Shown here one piece after another: positions 34,835 through 63,014 of a DNA stretch of 64,000 bases. Position numbers and translations under genes: made by a program. The stretch is taken from the NCBI GenBank assembly GCA_016203765.1, contig JACQMB010000145.1, positions 72,964 to 136,963 of the forward strand, read 5' to 3'. Under the pieces are notes generated by a model that was not told the origin of the DNA, made no database searches, and saw only the letters and a program-made list of their open reading frames with translations. Positions within the stretch are counted from its first letter, which is position 1. Each line of letters begins with the position of its first letter. The stretch comes from Deltaproteobacteria bacterium. Its GTDB lineage: Bacteria; UBA10199; SPLOWO2-01-44-7.

Positions 34835-37800
34835 TCAATTAACTATAAAAATTTCATCAGTTTTAATTGGCCCCTCTACTTTAAACTGTGGAATTCCCTT
34901 TGGGCCCATATTTGTTTTGCCAGCAGGTTTTACCCGAACAGATGGTTTTACTTCAATCAATTCTCCCCCCTTTTCAAAGTATTTTCTAATTTTTGGATCC
35001 TTCTGAAGGTTCTTGTTATAAATTGTTTTAATAATATCATCAGGTTTGCTTAAATCAACCTTCCTAAGATCATCAAACTTTCCTACTGTCGGCCAATTCT
35101 TCTTAGGTAGTCCTCCTTCCTTTATTATTTTCTCATATGCACCTTTAGGAATAATTTTCCCATAGGCTTTGGTAACATCACTCCCCTTATCCACCGCTTT
35201 GATAAGTTTGGCGCCCTTGTTGACAAATTTCCCACCAGTGGCCACCCAGCCGGCGAAGGGGATGGCGGCGCCGGCGGAGAGGGCGGCATTTGTATAATCG
35301 CCCCTGGCAGTGTAAATGCCGGCATTAAGTAAATCCAGAGGCTCGCCAATGCCGGGGATGAGGCCACCCACATCAAGTACAAATTGGCCAACATCTAGAA
35401 GGGTCTCAACGAGTTCGTTTTTCTTCCCCTTCTCTGTTCCAAAGGAATCAATCCAATTCAACGGGTCGTTGGTAGCATACGCATACACATTGGGTCCATC
35501 GATCATGCCTAAGGGGTCCTTGGAGGTAAATTGGCCGAGGGTGGGGGAGTAGTAGCGGTTTTTGTAATAGTAGAGTCCTGTTTCAGCGTCGAAGTATTGG
35601 CCGGTGTAGGTGAGGGGGTTGGAGATGGGGGCGATGGGGGCCAGGTCGGAGGCCTTGGCGGCGGCGGTGCGGAGTTTTGGTTGCGGCTCCGGTCCCCGCG
35701 CGGTCAGCGCGCCGTATTCGCCATACTCGTAGCGCTGGGCCATCCGGCCGTGTTCATCGCTCAAGCCGGTGATGGAGCCGAGGCGGTCGCGGTGATAATA
35801 AAAAAGCCGCCCGCCCGACTTTAACGCCACCGGTTCATCGAGGGATTTGCCGTGGATGTAGACGTTGCCGAGCTGGCCGTTTTCGTATTCTTCGATGAGG
35901 TTCCAGTTGTCATAGACAAACTCGATGGAACGGATGTAGGGACCCGCGTCGGCGGCCTCATTCGAAACGGCTGTCTCGTTCGCTGCCACCGGCCCCATCC
36001 TTACGTTCTCAAAGAAGACCTGTTTTTTGACTCTCCGGTTGTGGGCGTCGTAGGTGTATTTGGCAACGAGCTTGCCGGTGGCCTTGTCCTTGACCTGGGT
36101 TAAGCGATTGAAGGGGTCATATTCGAAAAGGTATTGAGTGTTGAGGGAGGTAAGATTACCGCGTTCGTCGTAGGCTAGGGGATCGCCGTTGAAGGAGGCG
36201 TATTGAAACCCCGCGCCGGAGGCGATGTTTGTGACTTCTTCTTTCTTCTTGCCGTCTTTCTCAATAATGCTTCGCCACTGGCCCTCGGCGGCGTAGGTGT
36301 ATTCGCGTTTGGTTGCGGCCAGCGACCAGGCCTGATCCCATGAATTTTTGTTCCCTCTGGGACCTTCGGTCTTCCCTACTTTTTCCAGTTGATCCAAATT
36401 ATTGTAGCCAAAGACCTCCCAGGTCTTTTGTTTGACGTCTTCTTTTAAAATCACCCTCCCTTTGAGATCGTAGGCGTAGGCCAGTTTGGAGAGAATATTC
36501 TTTTCTTTTTGGTAGTTTTCCTCCACCAGTTGCATCAGCGAATCGTAATTCAAGTTTTTGGTAATGCCGTTGCCCAGTGTTTCTTTTTGGGTAAATCCCA
36601 ACAGGGCGTATTGATACTGGCTGACACTTTGGCCGTTCACCTGGATATTTTCCAGCCAGCCCGCGGGATCAAAACTCTGCGTTACTTCTTCGCCCGAAGG
36701 ATAGAAGAGGGCGGTCTTTTGGCCCCGAATGTCGAAACGTTTTTTTAAGGTGCGGCCGGCTAAAGTTTCTTGAACAAGATTGCCAAGATTGTCATAGCCA
36801 AATTGGGAGGTGATATCATCGGTGGGATCGGCGGGGTCGTTCAAATCAGTGCCGGCCGTCAGCCGGCCCAAGGGATCGTAGCCGTAAGTTTGCTTGTAGG
36901 CGCCGCTGGCCCTTTCAATCAAACGATTGAGGGCGTCATAGGTATAGTCATACTTCGTTTGGCCCGCGGTCAGCGAGGTAAGGTTGCCCGCCGCGTCGTA
37001 GGCGTATTCCCTGCGCACGCCGTCGGCTCCCACTTCGGTTTTTTTGCGCCCCTGGCTGTCATAAGTGTATTGGACTTTATTGCCCTGACCATCGAGGAAG
37101 GCCTCCAAGACTTCATTATTCCACAAAAGTTTTCGCTCCCTTGTCCCTTGCGCCTCTTTGAGCAAGCGTCCGATCCCGTCATAATAATAGAGCGTCTCCT
37201 GGTTTAAGGGATCGATCTCTTTAATGAGCTGGCCCAGGCTGTTATAGATTTTTTGGTAACTCGCCCCCTTGGCATCGGTTTGGGAGACAATCTGGCCCAG
37301 GGCGTCATATTGATAGCGCTCCGATAGGGAATGTAACCCCTTGGCGATCTTTCGCTCCGTGATCAGCCCTCTGGAATCGTAGCTTAATTGAATCGCGTTG
37401 CCCGAGGCGTCTTCAATGGCGGCGACTTCGCCGAAGGAATTATAGCCAAACTTTTGCGCCAGCCCCAGCGGGTCACGGATTTCCTTCAGCAGGGGACCCG
37501 CGTAGACAAATTCCTTTTTCACCCAATCTTGCGTCCCTTCCGCCGAGCCGACCAGCCTCTCTTCCTCGGAGACTTTGCGCCCCAGGGCGTCATAGGCAAA
37601 CCGGACTTCCTTTAAGATGGCGGCCTTGGCGTCTTTAAACTGATAACCGGCGATCTCCCCCAGCCCGGTGTAGTCAATCTCCAAATGACTGCCCAACGGA
37701 TCAATAAACTTGGCAACGCGCGAGAGCGAATCCCTTTGGTATTCCTTCCGGTTTCCCTTGGCATCGCTCTCGGCAATCAAAAAACCGTCCGCGTCGTATT

Positions 37801-40800
37801 CGAGCTTTCTCTGCGTCTCGCCTCCGGCCTTCTCCTCCGTCACCCGGTTGAAGGGGTCGTAGACGAATTCCCTCGCGGTCCCGTCGATCCCTTTAATCCG
37901 CGTCAGGTTTTCATTGAGATCGTAGGCGTATTCCTCCGCCACCCACTTCTCTCTGTTGACCTGGAGTTCCTTCTTAATGAGATTGTCTAAAACGTCGTAG
38001 TTGTAGCGCTCTCTTAATTGATAACCGAGGTCGGCCGCGTTTAAGGCCCCCGCCACGTCGCGAGTAACTTCCATCAAGTTATCATTGGCATCGTAGCGAT
38101 AATAGGTCTTGTTCTTTAACGCGTCCTCCTTTTGCGCCACCAGATTGTCGGCGCTGACCCAGTAGCGGGTCTGGTTCCCCATAGGGTCCGTCACCGCCTG
38201 AATGTTGCCCCGCAAATCGTAGGCCAAACGCAGGGCGCGGCTCGCCTCCCCGGCGGTCTCCGTCAGACTGACCAAATCGGCCCCCTGATAACCGTAGCGC
38301 CTTGCCTTTTGACCCTCGCTCTCCGCTATCAACTGGCCGTGTTCGTTATATTCAAACACCGTAACCAAATCCCCACGCCTGATCTCCTTGAGCAGGCCCG
38401 AAGGGGTGTAGGCGTATTCCTCGCGGCGCTTTTCGGCGCCCGAAATCATTTCCCGAAAGAGGGGCTTGTGCAATTCCTTGTCATAGCCATAACGCACCTG
38501 AATCGTTTTGCCGTCTTCCCCCTTGACCCGCTGTTCCACCAGGTCCCGCCCCTCATAGCTAAACAGCTCTTCCTTCCCGCTGGGATAAATATGTTTAGTA
38601 ACAAGCCCAACATTATTATATTCAAACTTTTCAGGCGAATTCTTCTCCGCCTGATGGCTCAAGCGCAAGCCTTGGGCGTTGTGCTCATAGGTATGTTGAA
38701 CCCCTTTTCTGTCCCAAACCGTCGTCCGGCTTAACGCCGTGTTGACCGTCGGCTTCGAAGCCTTCAACGCCTGGTACTCCACGCGCATCTGAAGGCTCTC
38801 TTTCCCGCCGAACAACTGCGCCGTGATCTTGTCCTTCTCCAATCCCTCGGCCCCGTAGACATTCTTTAAATAGACCTGGCCTTTAGGGTCCATGATCATG
38901 TTAAGATTGTGATTGAGCCTCGGCTCCAGCAGGCCGCCGCTATAGGCATAGCGGGTTGTTTTGCCTTGAGGAAATTCATCCGAAACCGGCGAGCGGACCG
39001 ACACAAGGTCTTTTTGAACGTCATGGGTATAAACCACTTCTCTTCCAAAAGAATCCGCCACCGAGGCCAGCAGACCCTCATCACTATAGCGGTACTCCAC
39101 CGCCCGCCCCAGCGTGTCCACCACGCGCACCAAAACAATCGCGCTCCCGCTCAGACCGTATTCAAATCGAAGCGCGTTTCCATGGGGGTCTTCAATCTTC
39201 GTCAGCCGCCCCTCGCTGTTGAAATAATGCCGACTCGCGTCGGCTTGTTTCAAAACATATCCCCCCTCCGTCTTGCCCAGCTCCGTGAAAAAACCGCGCG
39301 GCGAATTAAAACCCTGCCTCTTTTCGTTAAAACGATACCAGTAGCGCAAACCTTCCGCGCTCTGATGGACCACATCTTTGTTGGAAGGATTTAAGATCAG
39401 CTTCTCGTCGTAATTGTGCGTCCAGTTGTAGCCCAGCGGCCCCATCCGCTCCCATTGATTCCGGTAATAACGCTTCAACTCATAGTCGAGGCCCCGGCCT
39501 CTCAATTTTAAGTCGGCCGCCTCCAACGCGTACTCCCCGCTGTACAAAATAACAGGGTCCAAAGGCGAATCGCTGTCGGCTTGAGGTGATTCATCAGTGG
39601 CCCCGGTCTGATCCTCCTTCGAGGCTACTTTTACTTCTTCATACCCGCAGGCCTCTTCGTCCCCCTCCGCGCAGGCCTGGGATTTTTCCTCCCCTTCCTG
39701 CTCCGGCGTTTCGTAACCCTCCTCCGGAGCCTTCCCCAAGGCCACGATCTGCTCGTCCATTTGGACTTTGAAATCGCTCAAGCCGCCCATGATCTCATCC
39801 AATTTCTCCTTGGCCTTCGACGGGTCCATTTTTTCAGAGAGGCCTTCCGCCATTTTAGCCAGCTCTTCCAGCTTGGCCTTCTGTTCGGGGGTCAATCCCT
39901 TCGCCCCATGCCCCCCGAATATCCCGCGCCCAGCAAAATCCCCGCCGATCATCATAAACGACCGAGGCTTCTTTTCCAATTGCCAGATCAAATGCTTGAT
40001 TAAATTGATTCCCGACTTGACCTCTTCGATGTCGATCCAAATGCAACACTTCACAGACCTCCTAAAGTGCTCGTGCGCCGCTACCGCCCATATCCCCGCC
40101 ATCGCGGGAGAGGGTATCTCGATGTCCGGAATGCCTAGCGTCGGCACTCCCTTCAGCTTGTGAAACTGATGTCCCAGATAATCCCCCGCCGACAAATTAA
40201 AAGGATTGGGCAGCTTTGACCCCTCCAGCATATCCTTCAAATTCGCCTCAATCGCCGCCAAATCGATATTCTTAACCGAATCCATCTTGTCCTTGATCGA
40301 CTCCATCGTATCCGCCGCCCCTTGGGTCAGATCATTCAGCTTCTGTTCAAAATTCGCCCCCAGCATGTCAAACATCTCTTTATCAATAAAATCCTTCATC
40401 CCATCCTTCGTCGCCAGGCCCATTTTTTCGGATAACTGGTTTTGAAGCGGCCCCACAAAACCGGCCGGATCGTCCGTCATGTTTCCGCCAAAAGTCCCCC
40501 TCGTCCATTCATGAAACGTCTTGTCAACCATTTCCCCCAAGCCATTTGTTGCCTGGTCGGTCACCGAGCTGATCATCTGCTGAACCTTCGCCGCCCCGTC
40601 CCCGGCAATATCCGCCCCCTTTAACACGTTATTGCGCATGAACTGATCCACCATCCCGGGAAATTGGATCTGCATCTGATTCTTGAATTCCTGCTTTAAA
40701 AATTCCCGGTATTCGCCGCTCCCCTCCCAGGGTTGGGACACTCGCATCGGCATGTTAACATCTCCGGGAGTATGCTCGCCTAGCGGCTTGGTTGGAACGT

Positions 40801-41080
40801 AACGGTCCCCATATTTCGCCACCCACTTCTCCCTGGCCTGCACCGCCCAGGACCTCATCTGGTCCGTCACCGCCGGCTGACTTAAAAATTTGTTCGCCTC
40901 GCCGCGGGCATACTTTCTCAGTTTCCCCATATCCATTGCCGTCTGATAATTAAACGAACGCAGGGATTGAATGCTTTCATTGATATCCTGGCTTTGGATG
41001 GATGAGACGAACGGCGCGGAGAGAAAGATGACGGCGGTGAGAATGACAACCCTCAATGACATTGTTGCTTTATTCCACAT
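34835..41080 (-). CDS. RHS/YD-repeat polymorphic toxin 1 (signal peptide, N-terminal domain, YD-repeat shell, RHS core, variable C-terminal toxin)
   Basis: Many YD repeats (YDALGR, YDANDNL, YDPFNR and others). RHS core end motif PLTYTGQYFDAETGLYYYKNRYYSPTLGQFTSKDPLGMIDGPNVYAY. AT-rich ~210-aa C-terminal tip. Start set at MWNK with a GGAGG RBS. The ORF-track upstream 37 aa is read-through. Confidence 0.9.
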   Translation of the reverse strand: MWNKATMSLRVVILTAVIFLSAPFVSSIQSQDINESIQSLRSFNYQTAMDMGKLRKYARGEANKFLSQPAVTDQMRSWAVQAREKWVAKYGDRYVPTKPLGEHTPGDVNMPMRVSQPWEGSGEYREFLKQEFKNQMQIQFPGMVDQFMRNNVLKGADIAGDGAAKVQQMISSVTDQATNGLGEMVDKTFHEWTRGTFGGNMTDDPAGFVGPLQNQLSEKMGLATKDGMKDFIDKEMFDMLGANFEQKLNDLTQGAADTMESIKDKMDSVKNIDLAAIEANLKDMLEGSKLPNPFNLSAGDYLGHQFHKLKGVPTLGIPDIEIPSPAMAGIWAVAAHEHFRRSVKCCIWIDIEEVKSGINLIKHLIWQLEKKPRSFMMIGGDFAGRGIFGGHGAKGLTPEQKAKLEELAKMAEGLSEKMDPSKAKEKLDEIMGGLSDFKVQMDEQIVALGKAPEEGYETPEQEGEEKSQACAEGDEEACGYEEVKVASKEDQTGATDESPQADSDSPLDPVILYSGEYALEAADLKLRGRGLDYELKRYYRNQWERMGPLGYNWTHNYDEKLILNPSNKDVVHQSAEGLRYWYRFNEKRQGFNSPRGFFTELGKTEGGYVLKQADASRHYFNSEGRLTKIEDPHGNALRFEYGLSGSAIVLVRVVDTLGRAVEYRYSDEGLLASVADSFGREVVYTHDVQKDLVSVRSPVSDEFPQGKTTRYAYSGGLLEPRLNHNLNMIMDPKGQVYLKNVYGAEGLEKDKITAQLFGGKESLQMRVEYQALKASKPTVNTALSRTTVWDRKGVQHTYEHNAQGLRLSHQAEKNSPEKFEYNNVGLVTKHIYPSGKEELFSYEGRDLVEQRVKGEDGKTIQVRYGYDKELHKPLFREMISGAEKRREEYAYTPSGLLKEIRRGDLVTVFEYNEHGQLIAESEGQKARRYGYQGADLVSLTETAGEASRALRLAYDLRGNIQAVTDPMGNQTRYWVSADNLVAQKEDALKNKTYYRYDANDNLMEVTRDVAGALNAADLGYQLRERYNYDVLDNLIKKELQVNREKWVAEEYAYDLNENLTRIKGIDGTAREFVYDPFNRVTEEKAGGETQRKLEYDADGFLIAESDAKGNRKEYQRDSLSRVAKFIDPLGSHLEIDYTGLGEIAGYQFKDAKAAILKEVRFAYDALGRKVSEEERLVGSAEGTQDWVKKEFVYAGPLLKEIRDPLGLAQKFGYNSFGEVAAIEDASGNAIQLSYDSRGLITERKIAKGLHSLSERYQYDALGQIVSQTDAKGASYQKIYNSLGQLIKEIDPLNQETLYYYDGIGRLLKEAQGTRERKLLWNNEVLEAFLDGQGNKVQYTYDSQGRKKTEVGADGVRREYAYDAAGNLTSLTAGQTKYDYTYDALNRLIERASGAYKQTYGYDPLGRLTAGTDLNDPADPTDDITSQFGYDNLGNLVQETLAGRTLKKRFDIRGQKTALFYPSGEEVTQSFDPAGWLENIQVNGQSVSQYQYALLGFTQKETLGNGITKNLNYDSLMQLVEENYQKEKNILSKLAYAYDLKGRVILKEDVKQKTWEVFGYNNLDQLEKVGKTEGPRGNKNSWDQAWSLAATKREYTYAAEGQWRSIIEKDGKKKEEVTNIASGAGFQYASFNGDPLAYDERGNLTSLNTQYLFEYDPFNRLTQVKDKATGKLVAKYTYDAHNRRVKKQVFFENVRMGPVAANETAVSNEAADAGPYIRSIEFVYDNWNLIEEYENGQLGNVYIHGKSLDEPVALKSGGRLFYYHRDRLGSITGLSDEHGRMAQRYEYGEYGALTARGPEPQPKLRTAAAKASDLAPIAPISNPLTYTGQYFDAETGLYYYKNRYYSPTLGQFTSKDPLGMIDGPNVYAYATNDPLNWIDSFGTEKGKKNELVETLLDVGQFVLDVGGLIPGIGEPLDLLNAGIYTARGDYTNAALSAGAAIPFAGWVATGGKFVNKGAKLIKAVDKGSDVTKAYGKIIPKGAYEKIIKEGGLPKKNWPTVGKFDDLRKVDLSKPDDIIKTIYNKNLQKDPKIRKYFEKGGELIEVKPSVRVKPAGKTNMGPKGIPQFKVEGPIKTDEIFIVN

Positions 41081-41411
41081 ATTGACCTCCTGATCAAGTT
41101 CCAAGGCCGTTATTTTTATTCTTGGCGGAACTTGATGAAAAGTTGCTTTATTGCACGAAAGTAAAGCAAAATTCGTGCCAGAAAATAGCAATATATTTTT
41201 TATTATAAATCATATAGATAGAAAATGCGTTTGACGTTGAATCGTGGTAATGTGTCTTTGGTTGGGACACAGTGTGCTAAAAGTAGGACACTTTTTGCAT
41301 GAGGCGCCCTCTTGGGCAGGTTATTATAAGTAATTGACAGTTTTAGGCTTTTTTTAATAATCTGAGGCGCACGGCGGTTGGCATTTGGTTTGCAGTTGCA
41401 AGAGAAGGTAC

Positions 41412-42164
41412 ATGGGGACAAAGAAAAAAACAGTAATAGCCCTGACCGCCCTCCTTTTTTTGGCCCCCGCCTGGGCCGGCGAGAAAGAATCAAAAAAGAA
41501 AAGCGAAATTTGGCTTTCCAATCCCGACCAGTATGTCTTCGACAAAATCGAGTTTCAGGAATCTTTTTTCATGCCGAAGACCGACCTGGTCGCAGGGCCG
41601 CAGACGGTCTACGGCTGGTTTGACCGTCTCACGCACCATTTCAGCTATGAGCAGGGAAACAATGTCCTGCTCCATTTCGAAGGAAAACATTATTCCAAAA
41701 AGTCGGGGGGTGTTTTGCCCAATTACGCGGTCCAGCTGAACATAGAAATTCCCCGGGGCCGCTTTAAGTCATGGGAGCGGATTGAGGCAAAGGATTTGAA
41801 GGGCTATCTCTCCTGGATACACCCCGATTTTCCCAAGGGGGATCTTTACATTCCGATCGCGGGGGGGTACGTTCAAATTCAGAAGGTCAAGGAGGGAAAA
41901 CTTTACGGCCACCTGGATTTGAAATTCGGGCACGAAAAACTGAAAGAGCCGATTCACATTTATGGCGGGCGCATCCGGGCCGGACGGCTCACCCGCCAGC
42001 AATACGCCTCCCTGCAGGAGGGGATGACGGAATCTCTCTACAAGGAGGCGGAAGGACTGGAGGAGATGCCGGTGCCGAAAGATCTGTTGAAGCCGGCCCG
42101 GAAGCGTTCCCGGCGCGGAGGGCCCAAAAAAGAGGAAGAGGCCCGAGGCTCGACGGCTTGGTAA
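41412..42164 (+). CDS. Secreted hypothetical protein, first gene of the Tad-like operon
   Basis: Signal peptide MGTKKKTVIALTALLFLAPAWA. Divergent from RHS-1. Confidence 0.45.
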   Translation: MGTKKKTVIALTALLFLAPAWAGEKESKKKSEIWLSNPDQYVFDKIEFQESFFMPKTDLVAGPQTVYGWFDRLTHHFSYEQGNNVLLHFEGKHYSKKSGGVLPNYAVQLNIEIPRGRFKSWERIEAKDLKGYLSWIHPDFPKGDLYIPIAGGYVQIQKVKEGKLYGHLDLKFGHEKLKEPIHIYGGRIRAGRLTRQQYASLQEGMTESLYKEAEGLEEMPVPKDLLKPARKRSRRGGPKKEEEARGSTAW

Positions 42165-42202
42165 TAAAGTTTTTTAAAAAACAAAATAAAGGAGGTGTTA
42201 TT

Positions 42203-42406
42203 ATGAAGTTCAAAGGACTCAAAAGAGATCAGCGGGGTCAAACCGCCACCGAGTATATGCTGATTATCGCGGTGGTGGTGCTGGGAGCTGTCGCCGGAGC
42301 CTCGATATTAATTCCGGAGTTTCGGGATGGGGTGACGCAGCTCTCCGCAAAAATTAAGAATATTCTAACGAATACTTCTACCCCAACGGCTCCAATTAAT
42401 CCGTAA
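42203..42406 (+). CDS. flp: Flp-family type IVb pilin
   Basis: 67 aa. Flp motif RGQTATEYMLIIAVVVLGA. AAGGAGG RBS 9 nt upstream. Confidence 0.8.
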   Translation: MKFKGLKRDQRGQTATEYMLIIAVVVLGAVAGASILIPEFRDGVTQLSAKIKNILTNTSTPTAPINP

Positions 42407-42434
42407 GCCTAAGGCGAAAAGGAGTTTTTAATAA

Positions 42435-44104: not shown

Positions 44105-44114
44105 AAGGAAAACC

Positions 44115-44942: not shown

Positions 44943-44944
44943 AC

Positions 44945-49361: not shown

Positions 49362-49363
49362 CG

Positions 49364-50218: not shown

Positions 50219-50223
50219 CACCG

Positions 50224-51141: not shown

Positions 51142-51148
51142 GAGGAAA

Positions 51149-54210: not shown

Positions 54211-55757
54211 AAAAAATTTTGATTCTCCTCTGCGCGGGTCTTTTTCCCTGGAGCGGTCCCTGGGCCAAGCCGGCCGTCGAGCCGATCTATATCCCGCTCG
54301 ATCATGTCCGCGTCCCCCATCCGGGCGCCGGCTGGAATTACCGGGTCGGCTCCGACCAACTGCGCATCGAATTCAAGGAAGAGGCCTCCCTCCGCAACGG
54401 GGCCTACCCGAGCGTTGTCCTCCTCTCGCGCCGGATCGTGGATGCCTCCCCCTACGCCGCGGCCTGGCAGCGCGCGGAACTCAAGGGTCTCCCGAAACGC
54501 TACCAGGTTGAAGCCGGCGACGCGGCGGCGGCGGATGCCTTTCAGATCAACTATTCCTTCACCCAAAACCTGATGCGCGTGGAGGGGGCCCGGTTCTACA
54601 AGCCGCAGGGCCACTGGCTTTACCTGTGGGAGTGTCAGCGGGAACAGGGCGGGGGCGTTGATTTGAAAAAATGGTGCCGGGACCTGTTCGCGAACATCCA
54701 ATGGTCGGAGGATATCGCGATCGCGTCGCCCGAACAGGTGGACGATTTGGATGCACTGGTCGCGAAGATGTCCTTTGCCCCCCCTCAATTGCAAAAACAG
54801 GAAACGGATCTGATCGCGGGCCTGCAAAAAACCCCGCTGACCTTCAACGACCTGATGGCCTACGGGGCCTTTCTGATGGTCCGCTCGCTCCTCTATCCTC
54901 CCCCCGAAGGACAGCAGGGGGACCTGATCGAGAATTTCAAAAAGATGTCGCTGATTTTCAGAAAAGATCCGCGCTACCGGACGGTGAGCGAATGGTTTGC
55001 GGTGCACGCCGAGGTCCTGGGAGGCCTGTTTAATTTGAAAAAGGCCAAAGAGGTGGCGCAGTCGAACGAGCGGCCTCCCTTCTGGCTGTTGAGCTTGTGG
55101 GTGGAGCCCCTCTCCCCGGGGATCGCCGCGAGCATGATCGCCCGCGAGGATTTTGACAAGGGCCTGGAACACTACGTGCAGGGGACGCTCCTTCATAAGA
55201 CCGGTCATGGGGACGAGGCCCTCACTCCTTTGAACAAGTCGGCCGGCCAATTTGGGGCGCTGGCTTGGGAACAGATGGCGCGCATCCATCTTGAAAAACA
55301 AGACCGCGATAAGGCGAAAATTTACGTTGAAAAAATCCTGAAAAAAAGTCCGGACCATGTCGGCGCGAAACTCCTTCTGGCCCGCATTTTGGAGGCGACC
55401 GAGGAGCCCCCCCAACTGGAGGAGGCCCAGAAGATCTACGCTGACTTGACCGCAAAGAAAGACCTCTCCGGGGACGAAAAACTGAATATCTTTTTGCAAA
55501 AGGCCAAAAACAGCATCCATCCCGAAATCCAGACGGAGTATTATGAAAAGGTTTTGGAGATTGACCCGAATCATCTGGACGCCATCTACGCGCTGGGCCG
55601 CCTCTATCTTTTGGAATATAATGACAAAAAGAAGGGGGTCCAATATTTTGAAAAATTCATTGCGAAGGCCCCCAAGGAAGACGAACGCGTGCAGGAATTG
55701 ACCGCCATGGTGCGCGATCTCCGCCATGAGATCTATTCGAGTCAAATTCCGGAATAG
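54195..55757 (+). CDS. Secreted TPR-repeat protein
   Basis: Signal peptide MSVPVKKILILLCAGLFPWSGPWA and C-terminal TPR repeats. Confidence 0.45.
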   Translation: MSVPVKKILILLCAGLFPWSGPWAKPAVEPIYIPLDHVRVPHPGAGWNYRVGSDQLRIEFKEEASLRNGAYPSVVLLSRRIVDASPYAAAWQRAELKGLPKRYQVEAGDAAAADAFQINYSFTQNLMRVEGARFYKPQGHWLYLWECQREQGGGVDLKKWCRDLFANIQWSEDIAIASPEQVDDLDALVAKMSFAPPQLQKQETDLIAGLQKTPLTFNDLMAYGAFLMVRSLLYPPPEGQQGDLIENFKKMSLIFRKDPRYRTVSEWFAVHAEVLGGLFNLKKAKEVAQSNERPPFWLLSLWVEPLSPGIAASMIAREDFDKGLEHYVQGTLLHKTGHGDEALTPLNKSAGQFGALAWEQMARIHLEKQDRDKAKIYVEKILKKSPDHVGAKLLLARILEATEEPPQLEEAQKIYADLTAKKDLSGDEKLNIFLQKAKNSIHPEIQTEYYEKVLEIDPNHLDAIYALGRLYLLEYNDKKKGVQYFEKFIAKAPKEDERVQELTAMVRDLRHEIYSSQIPE

Positions 55758-55761
55758 GACG

Positions 55762-56109
55762 ATGGGGGTTGCCCTGGCCGAGGGGCGGCTGGCCAGGCTT
55801 TTGGGAATGAGTTTTCGCGGCGCGTGGAAGAAAGAAGGGATGCTGTTTGTTTTTAAAAAACAGGGCCGCTATCCTTTTTGGATGTGGGGGATGCGCCTGC
55901 CGATCGATCTGGTCTGGTTAAAGAAACGGACGGTGGTCGGTTTTGAGGAAAATCTCCAGCCCCCGGCCTCCCGTTGGCACCTGCTCTTTCCCTTTCTGCT
56001 GAGGCGCTACCGTCCGCCGGAGGCCGTGGACGGCGTGCTGGAAGTTCCGGCCGGGTTTTGCCGGCAGAACCGGCTGAAAAGGGGGGAGGTACTCGATGCG
56101 CAAAATTAA
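55762..56109 (+). CDS. DUF192 (COG1430) family protein
   Basis: GMLFVF...YPFWMWGMRLPIDLVWL matches the DUF192 core. Confidence 0.5.
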   Translation: MGVALAEGRLARLLGMSFRGAWKKEGMLFVFKKQGRYPFWMWGMRLPIDLVWLKKRTVVGFEENLQPPASRWHLLFPFLLRRYRPPEAVDGVLEVPAGFCRQNRLKRGEVLDAQN

Positions 56110-56662
56110 CAACAGACAAGGACAAGCCGCCGTGGGTTATGCCCTGGCCCTGGCCGTCGTGGCGGTCGGCATGGGTGTGGTTTTAAACAGCCCCGAGCTG
56201 AGGCAGGGGATTGCCGAATTTTACACCAACGCCGCCACCCGCGTTATTCATGGCGGAAAATTCGGCGAATCCGATTTGACCGCCGCCAAGGATGAAACAT
56301 GGGGATCAGCGCCTTCGGATGAAACGGCCGGAACGCCGACTGAAAGCGGAACTCCCTCCGGCGGGGACGGCACGGGTGCCGGAGATGGTTCCTCAGGCGG
56401 TTCTTCGGATTCCGGGCAGACCACCCAGACAGGGGGCGGCGGCTTGGGGACCGGGGGGGTGAATACCCCGGGAACGGTTCCGGGCGAGACGACTGCTTCC
56501 ACGGGTCCCTCGACGCAACCCACCGCGCCAACGGGCTCCGTCCCGCCGGAACCCGGCGCGCCGAAAGGTCCCTTTGCCGATCAAAATATGTCTTCCGCCC
56601 CGGTTGAAAATCCGCAGGAGCCGGCGCAATGCGAAGCGGCGGCGGATAGCGCCGGAATATGA
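56096..56662 (+). CDS. Pilin-like protein with a non-canonical Flp-type N-terminus and a Gly/Ser/Thr-rich tail
   Basis: NNRQGQAAVGYALALAVVAVG resembles the Flp G/xxxxEY motif with E replaced by G. The C-terminal ~120 aa is G/S/T/P-rich. Stop overlaps the RHS-2 start. Confidence 0.45.
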   Translation: MRKINNRQGQAAVGYALALAVVAVGMGVVLNSPELRQGIAEFYTNAATRVIHGGKFGESDLTAAKDETWGSAPSDETAGTPTESGTPSGGDGTGAGDGSSGGSSDSGQTTQTGGGGLGTGGVNTPGTVPGETTASTGPSTQPTAPTGSVPPEPGAPKGPFADQNMSSAPVENPQEPAQCEAAADSAGI

Positions 56663-59600
56663 TGAAAAAACAAGTGAGCGCAAAACTTGTTTCATCGGGG
56701 GCCGTGATTTTAGGCTTGGCATTTTTTGTTTTTGTTTCCGGTCCGTTCGTCTCATCCATCCAAAGCCAGGATATCGATCAAAGCATTCAATCCCTGCGGT
56801 CGTTTGACTACCAGAAGGCGACCGACCTGGGAAAACTGGAGGACTACGCCAAGAAAGAGGCGCGGAAGTTCATGGGCCAGGCGGAGGTCAAGGAGAAGAT
56901 GGAGAGTTGGGTGAATGAGGCCAAGGAGGCTTGGACGGACGCGCACGGCAAGATGTATCAATTGCCGGCTCGGGGGGCCTCTGTTCCCTGGGAGTCGAGG
57001 CCGGAATACCGCGACTATTTGAAAAAAGAATTGACCAACCAGATGCAGGTGAAATTTCCGGGCATGATGGATCAGTTCATGAAGAACAACGTCTTGCAAG
57101 GGGCGCAGGTCGCGGCGGAGGAGGCGGCGAAGGTGGAGAAGATGATCGGGGAGGTGACCGACCAGACCCTGAAGAACGTGGAGGGGATCGTGGGGGGAGC
57201 GATCGACCATTGGGGAGAGACCATACAAAGCGGCGGGGGGATGTTGACGGACAAGTTATTGGAGCCCGCCGCCTTTTTGGGCGAGATGCAGGAGAAGCTG
57301 GCCGGCAAGATGGGGGAGGCGACCAAGCTGGGGATGAAGGAATTTATCGACAAAGAGATGATCGGTCTGCTGGGGGAGAATTTTGAGCAGAAGCTGACCG
57401 ATCTGACCCAAGGGGCGGCGGAGACGTTGGAGGGGATCAAAGACAAGCTGGCGGACATCAAGCACATCGATTTAACCTCGATCGAGCAAAACCTGCAGGG
57501 GATATTGGACGCCTCCGGTCTTCCGAATCCTTTTAATTTATCGGCCGGCGATTATTTGGGACATCAGTTTCACAAGCTGAAGGGACTGCCCCCGGCGACC
57601 CTTCCGGACATCGAGATTCCCTCCCCGGCGATGGCGGGGATTTGGGCCTCTTCGGCGGCGAAGCATTTTGCCAAGGCCTTCGTGAAGTTTGATGAGCTCC
57701 GTGCCGGGATCAACCTGATCAAGCATTTGATTTGGCAGATGGAGAAGAAGCCTCGGTCGTTCATGATGTTTGGGGGTGATTTTGCGGGGCGCGGTATCTT
57801 TGGCGCGCACGGGGCGGCGGGGCTGACGCCGGAGCAGAAGGCCAAGCTGGAGGCGCTGATCGCGGAGGCGGAGGGCCTGCCGGAAGACATGGATCCGACG
57901 AAGATGAAGGAGAAGCTGGAGGGATTCAGGGATATTTTGGGCGAGTTCAAGGTGGAGATGGACAAGCAGATTTTGGCGATGGGGAAGCCCAACGAGGGTT
58001 ACGATCAACCCGATTTGGAGGGTGAGGAGAAGGAAAAAGATTGCGAGAAGGACCCGGAGCGGGAGGAGTGTCAATACGAGGAGGTAAAAGTAGCCAGCAA
58101 GGAGGATCAGACCGGGGCGACGGAGGAATCCCCTGAGGCCGACAGCGATTCGCCTTTGGACCCTGTTATTTTGTACAGCGGGGAGTACGCGTTAAAAGCG
58201 ACTGATTTGAAATTAAGGGGCCGGGGCCTCGATTTTGAACTGACCCGCCACTACCGCAACCAATGGGAGCGGATGGGGCCGCTGGGATACAACTGGACGC
58301 ACAACTACGATGAGAAACTGATTCTCGATTCCCAAAAGCGGGACATCGTGCATCAATCGCCGGAAGGCCAGCGTTATTGGTATCGCTGGGATGAGAAAAA
58401 ACAGCGCTTTGATTCTCCGCGCGGCTTTTTCACGAAGCTGACCCCAACCGAAGGGGGATTTGTTCTAAAGCAATCCGAAGGGCTTAACTATTATTTCAAC
58501 GGCGAAGGGCGGATGACCAGGATTGAAGACGCTCATCAGAACGCCCTGCGATTTGAATACGGCCTCGCGGGCGAGACAATGGTTTTGGTGCGCGTGATAG
58601 ACACGCTGGGGCGCGCGGTGGAGTACCGTTACAATGATGAGGGTTTGATTGCCTCGGTGGTGGATCCCTTTGGAAGGGAAGTGGTTTATACCCATGACGC
58701 TCAAAAAGACCTTGTGTCTGTCCGCTCGCCGGTGAGCGATCAATATCCGCAGGGGAAGACAACCCGCTACGCTTACAGCGGCGGGCTGTTGGAGCCGAGG
58801 CTCAATCACAATCTCAACATGATCATGGATCCGAAGGGGCAGATTTATTTAAAAAACGTCTACGGGGCCGAGGGATTGGAAAAGGACAAGATCACGGCGC
58901 AGTTGTTCGGGGGAAAAGAGAGCCTTCAGATGCGGGTGGAATACGAGGCGTTAAAGGCCAGCAAGCCGACGGTCAACACGGCGTTAAGCCGGACGACGGT
59001 CTGGGACCGCAAGGGGGTTCAACATAGCTATGAGCACAACGCCTGGGGCCTGCGTTTGAGTGAGCGGGCGGGAGAAAATCCGGCCGAGCAGTTTGAATAT
59101 AACCAGGACGGGCTTTTAACCAAACACGTTTATCCCGGCGGCAAGGAGGAGATTTTTACCTACGAAGGGAATCATCTCAAAGAATATCAACTGAAAGGCG
59201 AGGATGGAAAATCCCTGCTGGGCCGTTATGGCTATGACAAGCAATGGAATAAGGTTGCCTTTGAAGAAAGGATCTCCGGCACCGAGGTTCGCCGGAAAGA
59301 ATACGCGTACAATGACGCGGGGCTTTTGAGCGAGGCGCGTGAGGGGGGTGTCACCACCCGGTATGAGTACGATCCCTACGGCCGGATTGTTAAAAAGATC
59401 GAAGGGGAAAAGACGCGGACCTACGCCTATGACAAGGCCAACCCCATTGTTATTACGGACAGCACGGAGGGGGGAAGCCGCAGTATCACCATCGGTTACG
59501 ATCTTTACGGCAACATTCAGGCGGTGACCGATCCTGCGGGGAACCGGACCCGCTATTGGCTGAATGCCAACAACCTGGTGGTGCAGAAGGAAGATGCCTT

Positions 59601-62600
59601 GGGCCACAAGACCCATTACGCTTACGATGCCAATGACAATTTGGCCGAGGTGACCCGCGACGTGGCCGGAGCGCTGAACATCTCCGATCTCGGTTATCAA
59701 TTAAGAGAGCGCTACAACTACGATGTTTTGGATAACTTGGTCAAAAAAGAGTCGCAGGTCAACCGGGAGAAGTGGGTGGCGGAGGAGTATGCCTACGATC
59801 TCAATGAAAACCTGACGCGGATTAAGGGGATCGACGGGACCGCGAGGGAATTCGTCTACGACCCCTTCAACCGCGTGACGGAGGAGAAGGCCGGAGGCGA
59901 GACGCAGAGAAAGCTCGAATACGACGCGGACGGTTTTTTGATTGCCGAGAGCGACGCCAAGGGAAACCGGAAGGAATATCAAAGGGATTCGCTTTCACGG
60001 ATTGCCAAGTTTATCGATCCGTTGGGGAGTCAGCTGGCCCTGAATTACACCGGCCTGGGCGAGATTGCCGGGTATCAGTTTAAAGACGCCAAGGCCGCCA
60101 TTTTAAAGGAGGTCCGGTTTGCCTACGACGCCCTGGGGCGCAAAGTCTCCGAGGAAGAGAGGCTGGTCGGCTCGGCGGAAGGGACGCGGGATTGGGTGAA
60201 AAAGGAGTTTGTTTACGCGGGGCCCTTCTTAAAGGAAGTTAGAGATTCGCTGGGGCTGGTGCAGAAGTTTGGCTACAATTCCTTCGGCGAGGTCGCCGCC
60301 ATTGAAGATGCCTCCGGCAATGCCATTCAGCTTAGCTATGATTCGCGGGGTCTGATGACTCAAAGACAAATCACCAAAGCAACGCGTTCCTTAACCGAGC
60401 GCTATCAATACGATGCCTTGGGCCAGCTCATCAGCCAAACCGATGCCAAGGGGGCGAGTTTAAAAAGGGTTTATAACAGCTTGGGCCAGTTGATTAAAGA
60501 GATCGACCCTCTCAATCAGGAGACCCTCTATTATTATGACGGGATCGGAAGACTCCTAAAGGAAGTGCAGGGCGAAAGAGAGCGAAAACTTCTGTGGAAT
60601 GCCGACCAAATGCTGGAGGCTTTTATCGACGGCCAGGGCAATAAGGTCCAATACACTTACGACAACCAGGGGCGCAAAAAGGCCGAAGTGGGAACCGACG
60701 GCGTTCGGAGGGAATACGGCTACGACGCGGCGGGCAACCTGGCCTCTCTGACCGCCGGCGCCGCAAAGTATGACTACACCTATGACGCCCTCAATCGTTT
60801 GATCGCGAGGGCCAGCGGTGATTACAAACAAACTTACGGCTATGATCCGTTGGGGAGGCTGGTCGCCAGCACGGATCTCAATGACCCTGCCGATCCGGCA
60901 GACGACACCACCGCCCGGTTTGAATACGACCCTCTTGGCAATCTGGTCAAGGAAACTCAGGGTGAGCGGGTGTTAAGCAAGCATTTCAACATCCGGGGCC
61001 AAAAAACCGCCCTCTTCTACCCTTCGGGCGAAGAAGTAACGCAAAGTTTTGATCCCGCGGGCTGGCTGGAAAATATCCAGGTCAACGGCCAAACGATCAG
61101 CCAATATCAATACGCCCTGTTGGGTTTTACCCAAAAAGAAACCTTGGGCAACGGCATTACCAAAAACTTGAATTATGACAACTTAATGCGGCTGGTGGAG
61201 GAGAACTACCAAAAAGAAAAGAATATTCTCTCCAAACTGGCTTATGCCTACGATCTCAAAGGGAGAGTGATTTTAAAAGAGGATGTAAAGCAAAAGACCT
61301 GGGAAGTCTTTGGCTACAATAATTTGGATCAACTGGAAAAAGTAGGGAAGACCGAAGGTCCCAGAGGGAACAAAAATTCATGGGATCAGGCCTGGGCGCT
61401 GGCCGCAACCAAACGCGAATACACCTACGCCGCCGAGGGTCAGTGGCGAAGCATTATTGAGAAAGACGGAAAGAAGAAAGAAGAAGTCACAAACATCGCC
61501 TCCGGCGCGGGGTTTCAATACGCCTCCTTCAACGGCGAGTCCCTGGCCTATGATGAGCGCGGCAATCTCGCCTCCCTTAACAATAAACTTTCCTTTGAAT
61601 ACGATCCCTTCAACCGCTTAACCCAAGTCAAAGACAAGGCCACCAATAAGCTCGTCGCCAAATACACCTACGACGCCCACAATCGCAGAGTCAAAAAACA
61701 GATTTTCTTTGAAAACGTAAGGATGGGGCCGTTCGCGGCGAATGAGGCGGCGGTTTCGGATGAGGCCGCTGACGCGGGCCCCTACATCCGTTCCATCGAG
61801 TTCGTCTATGACAACTGGAACCTCATCGAAGAATACGAAAACGGCCAGCTCGGCAACGTCTACATCCACGGCAAATCGCTCGATGAACCCGTCGCGTTAA
61901 AGAGCAACGGCAAGATCTTCTATTACCACAGAGACCGCTTGGGATCGGTGACGGGCTTGAGCGATGAGCACGGCCGGATGGCCCAGCGCTATGAGTACAC
62001 AGAGTACGGCGCGCTGACCGCGCGGGGGCCCGAACCGCAACCAAAACTCCGCTACGCCGCCGCTAAGGCCTCCGATCTCGCCCCTATCGCCCCCATCGAC
62101 AACCCCCTCACCTACACCGGCCAATATTTCGACGCCGAAACAGGGCTCTACTATTATAAGAATCGCTACTACGCCCCCCAACTCGGCCAATTCACCTCGA
62201 AGGATCCTTTGGGCATGGTGGATGGGCCGAATGTGTATGCGTATGTAAATAGCGACCCGTTAAACTGGGTGGATCCGACGGGGACGTTTATTGGGTATCA
62301 TAGTAGTGGTGAAAAGGTAGGCACTCTAGCTAATGCTAGAGCAGAGATTGATCAGATTGTATGGGCATATGTTGAACAGCGTAGAATTGAAGAAAATAAA
62401 TGTCGAACGGGCGATTATAACGTAAAAGAAAATAAGAACATAAACTATAGTGAGTTGTTAGAAATTCTTACGACTCATTTTGATACAAGCAATAATCGCT
62501 TTTTTTACACATCAAAGGGTGGTTTTATGGATGTGAAGCATGTAGTTGCGGCAACTCAGAAAGCCTATGAATTGCCATGGTACATACCAGACTCTGCAGT

Positions 62601-63009
62601 ATTGGTTGGAGGTATGGAAGTTGAAAGAATTCAATCTAGAGCTGGTGATAAGAGTGCGTGGGGGGCTGAAGATTTAGTGTCAAATAAAGCAGGTGTGAGG
62701 TTTGAAAATAAATTGCCTGATAATTTGGCTGAGTTAGGAGCAACCTTTGAAAATTTTTTCGACAAAAAATATGGTGGACAGGGCGCAACCCCATCACAAT
62801 CTGATATAAGGAAAATGAATCAAGTCCTCAACTTTGGGTACAGACCATTATTATCTCCAGATGACAAAAGAATACTTACAACTGACGATGGAATAAAATA
62901 TCTATCTAGTGGGGACACATTGATTGATATAATCAATTTAAATGAATATAGGGAAGGTCAAAAAAACCCACAACCTATGCATCCTCCTTTTGAATCGTTT
63001 AATTTATAA
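56659..63009 (+). CDS. RHS/YD-repeat polymorphic toxin 2 (paralog of RHS-1 with a different C-terminal toxin domain)
   Basis: Same architecture as RHS-1, with a near-identical YD shell and core. After DPLGMVDGPNVYAYVNSDPLNWVD it diverges into an AT-rich ~240-aa tip. Confidence 0.9.
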   Translation: MMKKQVSAKLVSSGAVILGLAFFVFVSGPFVSSIQSQDIDQSIQSLRSFDYQKATDLGKLEDYAKKEARKFMGQAEVKEKMESWVNEAKEAWTDAHGKMYQLPARGASVPWESRPEYRDYLKKELTNQMQVKFPGMMDQFMKNNVLQGAQVAAEEAAKVEKMIGEVTDQTLKNVEGIVGGAIDHWGETIQSGGGMLTDKLLEPAAFLGEMQEKLAGKMGEATKLGMKEFIDKEMIGLLGENFEQKLTDLTQGAAETLEGIKDKLADIKHIDLTSIEQNLQGILDASGLPNPFNLSAGDYLGHQFHKLKGLPPATLPDIEIPSPAMAGIWASSAAKHFAKAFVKFDELRAGINLIKHLIWQMEKKPRSFMMFGGDFAGRGIFGAHGAAGLTPEQKAKLEALIAEAEGLPEDMDPTKMKEKLEGFRDILGEFKVEMDKQILAMGKPNEGYDQPDLEGEEKEKDCEKDPEREECQYEEVKVASKEDQTGATEESPEADSDSPLDPVILYSGEYALKATDLKLRGRGLDFELTRHYRNQWERMGPLGYNWTHNYDEKLILDSQKRDIVHQSPEGQRYWYRWDEKKQRFDSPRGFFTKLTPTEGGFVLKQSEGLNYYFNGEGRMTRIEDAHQNALRFEYGLAGETMVLVRVIDTLGRAVEYRYNDEGLIASVVDPFGREVVYTHDAQKDLVSVRSPVSDQYPQGKTTRYAYSGGLLEPRLNHNLNMIMDPKGQIYLKNVYGAEGLEKDKITAQLFGGKESLQMRVEYEALKASKPTVNTALSRTTVWDRKGVQHSYEHNAWGLRLSERAGENPAEQFEYNQDGLLTKHVYPGGKEEIFTYEGNHLKEYQLKGEDGKSLLGRYGYDKQWNKVAFEERISGTEVRRKEYAYNDAGLLSEAREGGVTTRYEYDPYGRIVKKIEGEKTRTYAYDKANPIVITDSTEGGSRSITIGYDLYGNIQAVTDPAGNRTRYWLNANNLVVQKEDALGHKTHYAYDANDNLAEVTRDVAGALNISDLGYQLRERYNYDVLDNLVKKESQVNREKWVAEEYAYDLNENLTRIKGIDGTAREFVYDPFNRVTEEKAGGETQRKLEYDADGFLIAESDAKGNRKEYQRDSLSRIAKFIDPLGSQLALNYTGLGEIAGYQFKDAKAAILKEVRFAYDALGRKVSEEERLVGSAEGTRDWVKKEFVYAGPFLKEVRDSLGLVQKFGYNSFGEVAAIEDASGNAIQLSYDSRGLMTQRQITKATRSLTERYQYDALGQLISQTDAKGASLKRVYNSLGQLIKEIDPLNQETLYYYDGIGRLLKEVQGERERKLLWNADQMLEAFIDGQGNKVQYTYDNQGRKKAEVGTDGVRREYGYDAAGNLASLTAGAAKYDYTYDALNRLIARASGDYKQTYGYDPLGRLVASTDLNDPADPADDTTARFEYDPLGNLVKETQGERVLSKHFNIRGQKTALFYPSGEEVTQSFDPAGWLENIQVNGQTISQYQYALLGFTQKETLGNGITKNLNYDNLMRLVEENYQKEKNILSKLAYAYDLKGRVILKEDVKQKTWEVFGYNNLDQLEKVGKTEGPRGNKNSWDQAWALAATKREYTYAAEGQWRSIIEKDGKKKEEVTNIASGAGFQYASFNGESLAYDERGNLASLNNKLSFEYDPFNRLTQVKDKATNKLVAKYTYDAHNRRVKKQIFFENVRMGPFAANEAAVSDEAADAGPYIRSIEFVYDNWNLIEEYENGQLGNVYIHGKSLDEPVALKSNGKIFYYHRDRLGSVTGLSDEHGRMAQRYEYTEYGALTARGPEPQPKLRYAAAKASDLAPIAPIDNPLTYTGQYFDAETGLYYYKNRYYAPQLGQFTSKDPLGMVDGPNVYAYVNSDPLNWVDPTGTFIGYHSSGEKVGTLANARAEIDQIVWAYVEQRRIEENKCRTGDYNVKENKNINYSELLEILTTHFDTSNNRFFYTSKGGFMDVKHVVAATQKAYELPWYIPDSAVLVGGMEVERIQSRAGDKSAWGAEDLVSNKAGVRFENKLPDNLAELGATFENFFDKKYGGQGATPSQSDIRKMNQVLNFGYRPLLSPDDKRILTTDDGIKYLSSGDTLIDIINLNEYREGQKNPQPMHPPFESFNL

Positions 63010-63014
63010 TTTGC

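Follow-up and report, generated by a model that had tools for sequence, protein, structure and literature searches.

The enterobacterial Rhs proteins (rhsA-E of E. coli and those of Citrobacter rodentium) combine a YD-repeat shell and a DPxG-type core end with unrelated C-terminal tips and a small gene downstream, have no signal peptides and are loaded onto the T6SS (type VI secretion system) through PAAR or VgrG. Both homologous recombination and C-terminal displacement use their paralogous cores as substrates (PMC3072379; PMC2530875; for the displacement, Jackson et al. 2009 as cited in PMC2530875). A second kind of Rhs/WapA toxin is Sec-dependent: WapA of Bacillus subtilis, which is anchored to the Gram-positive wall, and Rhs4 and Rhs5 of Myxococcus xanthus are giant YD-repeat proteins with a signal peptide and polymorphic tips that act independently of the T6SS, in Myxococcus by a route not attributed to the Kil system (PMC10433427). 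Kil is a Tad-like machine with a secretin, an ATPase, Flp pilins and TadE/F/G-type minor pilins that performs contact-dependent killing and has been proposed to resemble a type II secretion system or to carry tip-associated toxins (PMC8460266, PMC12075869). Lastly, the hit locus of Bdellovibrio bacteriovorus (bd0108-bd0121) encodes Bd0109, an RHS/YD-repeat protein co-transcribed with type IVb pilus genes, which binds the small disordered protein Bd0108, for which no deletion could be obtained, and which influences piliation (PMC3818213). Here we analyze a 64,000-nucleotide (nt) stretch of a Deltaproteobacteria bacterium in which two large RHS genes, RHS-1 and RHS-2, stand in inverted orientation, one on each side of a complete Tad/Flp operon.

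We estimate at roughly 60% the probability that RHS-1 and RHS-2 are paralogous Sec-exported Rhs toxins forming one functional module with the Tad/Flp operon, with the inverted-repeat geometry as a by-product; the Tad-linked part of the export is what we infer from the genes around them. The window, meaning the whole stretch of 64,000 nt, corresponds to positions 72,964-136,963 (forward) of contig JACQMB010000145.1 in assembly GCA_016203765.1; all coordinates are window positions, and the listing of open reading frames (ORFs) was limited to those of at least 150 amino acids. Comparison contigs of the same population came from the metagenome-assembled genome (MAG) GCA_016206415.1 (contigs 126, 160 and 201) and from Logan contigs of four sequencing runs. 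An earlier note on this DNA had described two RHS genes inverted around a Tad-like locus, and both the ORFs and the Pfam and NCBIfam matches bear this out, the Tad/Flp locus being genuine. The parts of the two genes are the following.

34835..41191, minus strand: ORF of RHS-1, with a likely ATG at 41080 (MWNK...) that agrees with public protein P0002 and with the coordinate in the earlier note; product of 2,081 amino acids
39641..41080, minus strand: N-terminal region of RHS-1, about 480 amino acids, signal peptide and then an all-helical domain
34838..35434, minus strand: CT1, putative C-terminal toxin tip of RHS-1, 199 amino acids
34546..34833, minus strand: imm1, putative immunity gene 1, 95 amino acids, without a signal peptide, beginning one base past the RHS-1 stop codon
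56659..63009, plus strand: RHS-2, 2,116 amino acids, co-oriented and contiguous with the Tad operon
62287..63006, plus strand: CT2, putative toxin tip of RHS-2, 240 amino acids
63015..63365, plus strand: imm2, putative immunity gene 2, 116 amino acids, with a signal or lipoprotein-like N-terminus

Both proteins show the same order of parts, from a Sec-type signal peptide through an N-terminal helical domain, DUF6531, RHS repeats and the Rhs core to the toxin tip. Pfam matches were RHS_repeat (4.7e-71) and DUF6531 (7.2e-13) for RHS-1, and the same families for RHS-2 (1.1e-76 and 1.3e-15); in NCBIfam both proteins match YD_repeat_2x and the Rhs_assc_core model TIGR03696 (E = 1.1e-23 for RHS-1, 2.6e-26 for RHS-2), and the TIGR01643 matches reach 1.7e-49 and 5.4e-58, respectively. 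Each N-terminus looks like a signal peptide, with a basic start, a hydrophobic stretch and the sequence ...PFVSS/IQSQD, and each core closes on a motif that reads SKDPLGM[IV]DGPNVYAY..DPLNW[IV]D. The likeness of the two proteins drops from ~80-90% to background right past this motif (35435 and 62286), and CT1 and CT2 are unrelated to each other. This combination of a repeat shell, a core with its end motif, and unrelated tips on a shared core is that of Rhs polymorphic toxins, and with a small ORF within 1-5 nt 3' of each RHS gene the layout is probably the standard one of a polymorphic Rhs toxin followed by its immunity gene, the toxic and protective roles being assigned by position. CT1 had no Pfam match at E<=1 and no PDB sequence match below E = 0.25, CT2 had only a sub-threshold Pfam match (DUF4056, E = 0.004) and a best PDB sequence match at E = 0.045, and neither imm1 nor imm2 had a Pfam match. 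The opening of CT1 gave on reading the impression of a pre-toxin-TG-like stretch, which Pfam does not support and which we do not claim. An identical copy of imm1 adjoins the 3' end of RHS-1 on Logan contig L090. Close relatives of the RHS proteins are confined to the same MAG, the next matches being generic Rhs proteins at ~24% identity, and an exact look-up of full-length RHS-2 gave no match.

The pair therefore shares with the enterobacterial proteins the shell, the type of core end, the unrelated tips and the small downstream gene, but differs from them in how it would leave the cell: Pfam found no PAAR or other T6SS-loading domain on RHS-1 or RHS-2, no T6SS genes lie among the scanned ORFs of the window, and both proteins start with Sec-type signal peptides and a novel N-terminal domain. 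With no PAAR/VgrG-loading domain, with signal peptides and with no T6SS linkage, they do not have the make-up of T6SS-delivered Rhs effectors. In signal peptide, size, repeats and polymorphic tips they are closer to the Sec-dependent WapA, Rhs4 and Rhs5, none of which has been linked to a Tad locus or shown to carry this N-terminal domain.

The genes that stand between the two RHS genes, all on the plus strand, are these.

41412..42164, plus strand: conserved gene of about 250 amino acids with a Sec signal, first on the Tad side and divergent from RHS-1
42203..55757, plus strand: Tad/Flp (type IVc pilus) operon as a whole, from Pfam, ORFs and gene calls on identical public contigs
42203-42406, plus strand: Flp pilin, reading RG/QTATEY (a G/XXXXEY-type processing motif); Flp_Fap E = 1e-4, below the gathering cut-off
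42435-42893, plus strand: TadE-like (Pfam TadE 1e-4)
42847-43791, plus strand: TadG-like (Pfam Tad 1e-6)
43775-44104, plus strand: pseudopilin-like, 109 amino acids
44115-44942, plus strand: RcpC/CpaB (RcpC 3.3e-24)
44945-46357, plus strand: secretin (Secretin 1.1e-21)
46354-48498, plus strand: TadZ-TadA fusion (T2SSE 2.3e-62, with an N-terminal CbiA/ParA-like domain)
48495-49361, plus strand: TadB (T2SSF)
49364-50218, plus strand: protein of 284 amino acids, unknown
50224-51141, plus strand: TadC (T2SSF)
51149-52306, plus strand: protein of 385 amino acids, unknown
52307-55757, plus strand: three TPR-type proteins
55762..56109, plus strand: DUF192 gene, 115 amino acids (Pfam DUF192 3.9e-19), from gene calls on L091-L094, frame checked
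56096..56662, plus strand: Flp-like gene, 188 amino acids, whose stop codon overlaps the RHS-2 ATG

The set of Flp, TadE/TadG pseudopilins, RcpC, secretin, TadZ, TadA ATPase, TadB and TadC is that of a Tad system. RHS-1 is divergent from the 5' end of this operon, and RHS-2, directly 3' of the Flp-like gene, is its second-to-last gene: from Flp (42203) to imm2 (63365) neighboring genes overlap or are separated by gaps of at most ~30 nt. With the last TPR gene on one side and the Flp-like gene on the other, the DUF192 gene fills what had appeared as a 339-nt gap. The 188-amino-acid product of the Flp-like gene has a prepilin-like N-terminus (MRKINNRQG/QAAVGY), then a hydrophobic helix and a G/S/T/P-rich tail, and in BLASTP it is 33% identical to the Flp of the locus over 39 residues (pairwise E = 0.009). 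The ~250-amino-acid gene has no match in Pfam or NCBIfam. Promoter and terminator scans gave nothing informative, and an alignment of four divergent RHS/Tad intergenic regions contained no conserved motif. On contig 201 (JACQRO010000201, our L082), which differs from window 36173-51071 by 2 mismatches and one 9-nt indel, TadZ-TadA is called as 409 amino acids with ~900 nt left unannotated upstream, which may be a strain difference or a difference in gene calling.

Past the signal peptide, RHS-1 and RHS-2 carry a domain of ~450 residues. It is 63% identical in amino acids between the two, so that the N-terminal domains are paralogous and not distinct modules, and it has no match in Pfam or NCBIfam. 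The family is rare, with 26 matches among 1.84 billion representative proteins in an exhaustive HMMER search, one of which is a repetitive artefact; word-index homology searches with the RHS-2 N-terminus or with an alignment of 11 N-domain sequences returned no matches, apparently through a failure of the index since HMMER succeeded, and a scan of metagenome contigs with the N-domain alignment returned none either. AlphaFold2 models of the domain reached a predicted local distance difference test score (pLDDT) of 43.5 with 2 sequences and 63.8 with 11, and Foldseek against the PDB found for the model only generic helical bundles at E > 0.1. In the members of the family the domain stands before DUF6531-RHS or before a CHAP peptidoglycan hydrolase. 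In P0028 (L085 10001-11824) and P0031 it is fused directly to the CHAP hydrolase, without an RHS cage, which suggests a module by which different antibacterial effectors are delivered or anchored. Fusion to either an RHS or a CHAP part is as expected of an N-terminal trafficking domain of polymorphic toxins. A distant clade (P0035-P0045) seemed on reading to end in a YkuD-like domain; Pfam does not support this and we make no claim of it.

One indication that the RHS genes belong with the Tad operon comes from relatives of this domain. Two of them, P0024 (on L083) and P0026 (on L087), divergently adjoin orthologous Tad loci with the same gene order, which in the window and in both relatives runs RHS, divergent 250-amino-acid gene, Flp, TadE, TadG, RcpC, secretin, TadZ-TadA, TadB, unknown, TadC. 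Identity to the window is 60% (L083) and 48% (L087) for TadZ-TadA, and 58% and 55% for the secretin. For a third relative, P0023 (L088), the divergent neighbor is a homologue of the 250-amino-acid gene, placed at the contig end, where only this first gene of the order is in view. The homologues of the 250-amino-acid gene beside the RHS gene are 37% (L083), 32% (L087) and 32% (L088) identical to that of the window, and the genes beyond the RHS gene differ among lineages. The RHS-Tad arrangement thus recurs in three other uncultivated lineages, for L088 as far as the first gene.

An association of RHS and Tad genes also exists in the nearest full-length TadZ-TadA relatives, which among GTDB species representatives belong to Bdellovibrionota and Oligoflexia (40-44% identity). 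In five of these Tad loci a Sec-signal DUF6531/RHS-repeat protein of ~600 amino acids is encoded directly after TadZ-TadA and TadB.

Bd0109-like genes: L001 8756-10501; L002 13068-14888; L004 3963-5684; L005 13069-14712; L007 13072-14742

In L002 the next gene encodes a small protein with a signal peptide and a disordered tail, and the arrangement corresponds to the Bd0109/Bd0108 pair in position and domain content, by which the five genes would be orthologues of Bd0109. The same Oligoflexia locus encodes at L002 1930-4299 a 789-amino-acid protein with FHA/YscD-cytoplasmic domains and TPR repeats, of which no equivalent was seen in the Tad locus of the window. In both the hit locus and the window, a Sec-exported RHS/YD-repeat protein is encoded within a Tad-type operon, and beside it a disordered secreted protein of small size. 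The Bd0109-like proteins, however, are of ~600 amino acids with DUF6531 and few repeats, and are without the N-terminal domain, a complete core, a toxin tip and an immunity gene, and a role in regulating the extrusion of pili has been proposed for them, whereas the window has RHS proteins of ~2,100 amino acids with putative toxin tips, in two copies, at both ends of the operon. RHS-1 and RHS-2 also fall outside the Bd0109 type by position and sequence, as the slot after TadB holds the unrelated 284-amino-acid gene and the identity to Bd0109-like proteins is 21-29%, in generic repeats only. The likeness lies in the genomic theme and therefore does not amount to membership. In the 80 GTDB loci fetched by TadZ-TadA, no RHS gene with the N-terminal domain was found, and only Bd0109-like genes are there.

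With Kil, the locus shares the type of machine and a 'deltaproteobacterial' lineage. It differs in that the Kil toxin has not been identified, that linkage of kil to Rhs genes has not been reported, and that Kil works with a needleless T3SS (type III secretion system) not seen in the window. TadZ-TadA of the window has its best full-length matches in Bdellovibrionota at 40-44%, and the window contains no T3SS genes.

Our preferred reading can be put as a course of events. RHS-1 would hold the conserved position, in divergent orientation to the operon's first gene, and RHS-2 would be a lineage-specific duplicate at the 3' end, co-transcribed after the Flp-like gene; the duplication would be old, with patches in the 3' part of the cores homogenised later by gene conversion. 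An RHS-1 in the conserved divergent slot joined by a later 3' duplicate would explain the inverted-repeat geometry, which would then not be a purpose-built switch. The RHS proteins would cross the inner membrane through Sec, and the shared N-terminal helical domain would target them to the Tad secretin or pilus, where the Tad step could be a type-II-like extrusion or display at the pilus tip, before the Rhs cage delivers the tip toxin into a neighboring cell. We propose Tad-assisted export or display because of the conserved linkage, the operon coupling and the precedent of Bd0109. More tentatively, the case could be a general one, in which Sec-dependent polymorphic toxins, recognised through the N-terminal domain, would be exported across the outer membrane or presented by a Tad/Kil-like pilus, with Bd0109 as a disarmed relic of such a cargo; this wider form we regard as possible though doubtful.

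Several observations weigh against the proposal. What points to Tad-dependent toxin delivery is gene neighborhood only, and the toxin and immunity roles are suggested by position, with no toxin family matched. Bd0109 itself has been proposed to be a pilus regulator and not a cargo toxin (PMC3818213). The N-domain model is of low confidence (pLDDT 64) and has no structural match, the assignment of the 188-amino-acid protein as Flp-like is a weak and tentative one, with no Pfam match, and no ORF of the locus matches a peptidase A24, so that the prepilin peptidase (TadV/CpaA) may be encoded outside the window. Among the relatives, no Tad genes accompany P0037, P0028, P0022 and P0033 (on L084, L085, L086 and L089) in the 6-10 kb of DNA available to either side, and the operons that do adjoin an RHS gene are seen without their far end, where a second RHS gene would sit; a scan of metagenome contigs with a protein specific to L087 gave no further part of that contig.

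Some of these points are what one would expect if the RHS genes and the Tad genes were unrelated neighbors, held in synteny by descent only, and the RHS proteins left the cell by another exit, such as a T6SS encoded elsewhere or an anchoring like that of WapA or Rhs4/5. Half of the N-domain family contexts that we examined are without Tad genes, no experiment ties Rhs toxins to Tad systems, our literature searches found no paper tying them to Tad export, and the Myxococcus signal-peptide Rhs proteins, as described above, act independently of the T6SS without their route being attributed to Kil (PMC10433427). Mere descent, however, does not sit well with a synteny kept at 26-39% identity of the N-terminal domain and 48-60% identity of TadZ-TadA while the outer flanks differ, nor with the overlapping start and stop codons that couple RHS-2 to the Tad operon, nor with the independent presence of an RHS-repeat gene inside Bdellovibrionota Tad operons (PMC3818213); and an exit through a T6SS is disfavored by the RHS proteins, which have no PAAR domain, and by the window, in which no T6SS genes were found. 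We consider this alternative unlikely, while giving it serious weight.

A further alternative makes the RHS proteins structural or regulatory parts of the pilus and not delivered toxins, the YD shell binding wall or pilus glycans and controlling extrusion and retraction. A role of this kind has been proposed for Bd0109, which binds Bd0108, is not deletable and influences piliation (PMC3818213), and both systems encode beside the RHS gene a small disordered protein whose N-terminus is signal- or pilin-like. Unlike the Bd0109-like proteins of ~600 amino acids, however, RHS-1 and RHS-2 carry a complete core with an autoproteolysis-type motif, unrelated tips of 199 and 240 amino acids and a small ORF, which together make the signature of polymorphic toxins, and other members of the N-domain family carry CHAP hydrolases. 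We hold such a structural or regulatory role to be improbable.

How alike the two genes are bears on the question of whether they act as a DNA switch. The arms of the repeat and its most similar tract are as follows.

35435..41050, minus strand: left arm of the repeat, in which RHS-1 is homologous to RHS-2 (tblastn, blastn, repeat segments I1-I10)
56707..62286, plus strand: right arm of the repeat, in which RHS-2 is homologous to RHS-1
36216..36415, minus strand: most similar tract, 98.5% over 200 nt against 61306-61505, including the 90-nt perfect match 36326-36415

The repeat is real and far beyond chance: over a length of 5.3-5.6 kb, a repeat search found ten inverted-repeat segments between RHS-1 and RHS-2, each 72-88% complementary, and blastn gave a single alignment of 5,337 nt at 79.3% identity (E = 0), with a protein identity of 76.8% over 1,880 amino acids. 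It is also a mosaic, with identities of 0.53-0.98 in 200-nt windows of a global alignment. The best tracts (98.5% over 200 nt, 94% over 500 nt, 90% over 1 kb) are all in the 3' third of the core, the longest perfect match covers 90 nt (36326-36415 = 61306-61395), and 41 runs of 20 nt or more match perfectly. At the gene starts the first ~450 nt align poorly as DNA yet encode the homologous N-terminal domains, and at the gene ends the last 600-720 nt, encoding the toxin tips, are unrelated. Of the long near-identical stretches described in the earlier note, the repeat is thus confirmed and the near-identity holds for a few hundred bases only, given 79% overall and 53-98% per window; the mirrored pair of antisense ORFs to which it had pointed (35852-36103 and 61618-61869) is real and 91% identical. 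The note had named identity below 85% with no long identical tracts as a result that would speak against it, and 79% overall with a longest identical tract of 90 nt is a borderline case that leans toward refutation. A tblastn search found no orphan rhs fragments elsewhere in the window, and a third RHS gene considered at the large ORF 25708-31452 was rejected, its Pfam match being alpha-2-macroglobulin.

The cores have exchanged sequence. Among 1,398 aligned core codons, 844 are identical, 321 differ synonymously and 233 differ in the amino acid. The longest identical run spans 30 codons, where permutations gave on average 13 with all codon states shuffled (p = 0.0006) and 16 with synonymous states shuffled among codons of the same amino acid (p = 0.0016), and none of 5,000 permutations reached the observed sum-of-squares statistic. 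The share of synonymous differences per 100 codons ranges over 0.16-0.39, identity at fourfold-degenerate sites ranges from ~0.3 to 1.0 in 50-codon windows, and ~30% of these sites differ between the copies. The synonymous differences are clustered (p about 0.001), and therefore the copies have exchanged sequence by gene conversion; the pattern fits an old duplication later patched in this way, with the 3' part of the core homogenised in patches. The tract at 36216-36415 is the most likely site of crossover or gene conversion. Of the recombinational shuffling of parts that had been suggested for the two genes, the exchange itself is therefore borne out by the clustered synonymous differences, and a shuffling of N-terminal domains has little meaning, these domains being themselves paralogous.

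A crossover within the cores would leave both genes intact and invert the 15.5-kb Tad segment between them; CT1-imm1 would then follow the 5' part linked to the operon, and CT2-imm2 the divergent one. A working inversion switch would use such crossovers to change the tip on the 5' part driven by the operon, and the intactness of both genes after a crossover, the 200-nt tract at 98.5% with its 90-nt perfect match and the statistical sign of past exchange between the copies would all suit it. Rhs elements are moreover documented recombination substrates (PMC3072379; PMC2530875; for rhs recombination, Lin, Capage and Hill 1984 as cited in PMC2530875). That they mediate rearrangements is a long-known idea, from which the rhs (rearrangement hot spot) genes take their name, and the inverted repeat as such is ordinary. 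The documented rearrangements use almost identical cores, whereas those of the window are 79% identical. Divergence of 10-20% cuts recombination by orders of magnitude through RecA and mismatch-repair barriers. Because of the 79% overall identity and these barriers, inversion by homologous recombination should be rare, and nothing points to its being programmed: no serine or tyrosine site-specific recombinase, invertase or integrase lies among the scanned ORFs, where the sole transposase-like gene is the Y1/RAYT fragment at 63481-64000, and in place of a recombinase beside short sites there are 5-kb diverged genes. The exchange that did occur can have been gene conversion without crossover.

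Nor did the public contigs give evidence for the inversion of the Tad interval that the earlier note had thought possible. Contig 201, at 99.93%, corresponds to window 51071-36173 and runs from the Tad locus into RHS-1 as far as 36173, contig 126 matches 58017-63283 at 100% and contig 160 matches 54570-58035 at 100%, and the Logan contigs of the four runs match the window at 100%. Every public contig retrieved shows the parental junctions and is colinear with the window, a statement on assembled contigs that span part of the possible crossover sites. A minority inverted subpopulation may still exist, colinearity being seen in contigs only. Taking these lines together, a working switch seems to us very improbable.

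In practice, the repeat makes short-read assemblies break within both RHS genes, with several contig ends at shared perfect tracts: L090 starts at 35873, inside a 74-nt run, L091, L093 and L095 stop at 56775, where a 33-nt run ends, and contig 201 ends at 36173, 10 nt beyond a 68-nt run. These breaks, and the dependence of the pairing of 5' and 3' halves on how the assembler resolved the repeat, would allow the repeat or its orientation to be an assembly artefact, an idea with next to no probability given that independent contigs (99.9-100%) repeat 4.9 kb of RHS-1 with the 5' end of the Tad operon, 5.0 kb of RHS-2 with CT2 and imm2, as well as the Tad operon's 3' end with the first 1.4 kb of RHS-2, and that copies differing at ~1 base in 5 cannot be collapsed.

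Around this locus the window holds further elements. A 55-nt hairpin element, GGACACGATACTTA...TAAGTATCGTGTCC, occurs twice (32437-32491 and 33996-34050; 0 expected by chance), with half-sites at 22420-22430, 34085-34095 and 63375-63385, the last one just downstream of imm2. The right end of the window (63481-64000) is the start of an IS200-like Y1 transposase (Pfam Y1_Tnp 1.6e-11), and hairpins and transposase together look like repetitive extragenic palindromic (REP)/REPIN elements with their RAYT transposase. Downstream of imm1, the region 31658-34505 (minus strand) is of low GC content (~41%) and contains four ORFs of 146-284 amino acids without a family match, three of them with signal-peptide-like starts, with the hairpin repeats interspersed; the region may hold arrayed orphan immunity genes or cargo of another kind. 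Next to it (23388-31452, minus strand) a bacterial alpha-2-macroglobulin of 1,914 amino acids (25708-31452) adjoins a PBP1c-type penicillin-binding protein (Transgly, Transpeptidase, BiPBP_C), the A2M/PbpC pair being a classic periplasmic defence pair. In the left third of the window (390-22381), genes for polysaccharides and sugar nucleotides form a cluster, with a sugar transferase, glycosyltransferases, methyltransferases, a GDP-mannose dehydratase-like enzyme, UDP-glucose dehydrogenase and myo-inositol-1-phosphate synthase, and with a DUF4215 repeat protein at 390-2444.

What is new in this locus is the joining of an Rhs polymorphic toxin to a Bdellovibrio-style RHS-Tad association, through proteins with an undescribed N-terminal domain, each of the two kinds being already known. 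The locus gives a testable export hypothesis together with specific proteins, which could bear on how signal-peptide Rhs toxins of diderm bacteria cross the outer membrane and on which toxins are delivered by the Tad-like Kil apparatus of predatory bacteria (for Kil, PMC8460266, PMC12075869). If the hypothesis is true, the Tad machine would be a new secretion pathway for Rhs toxins, and RHS-1 and RHS-2 would be candidates for the toxins of Kil-type contact-dependent killing.

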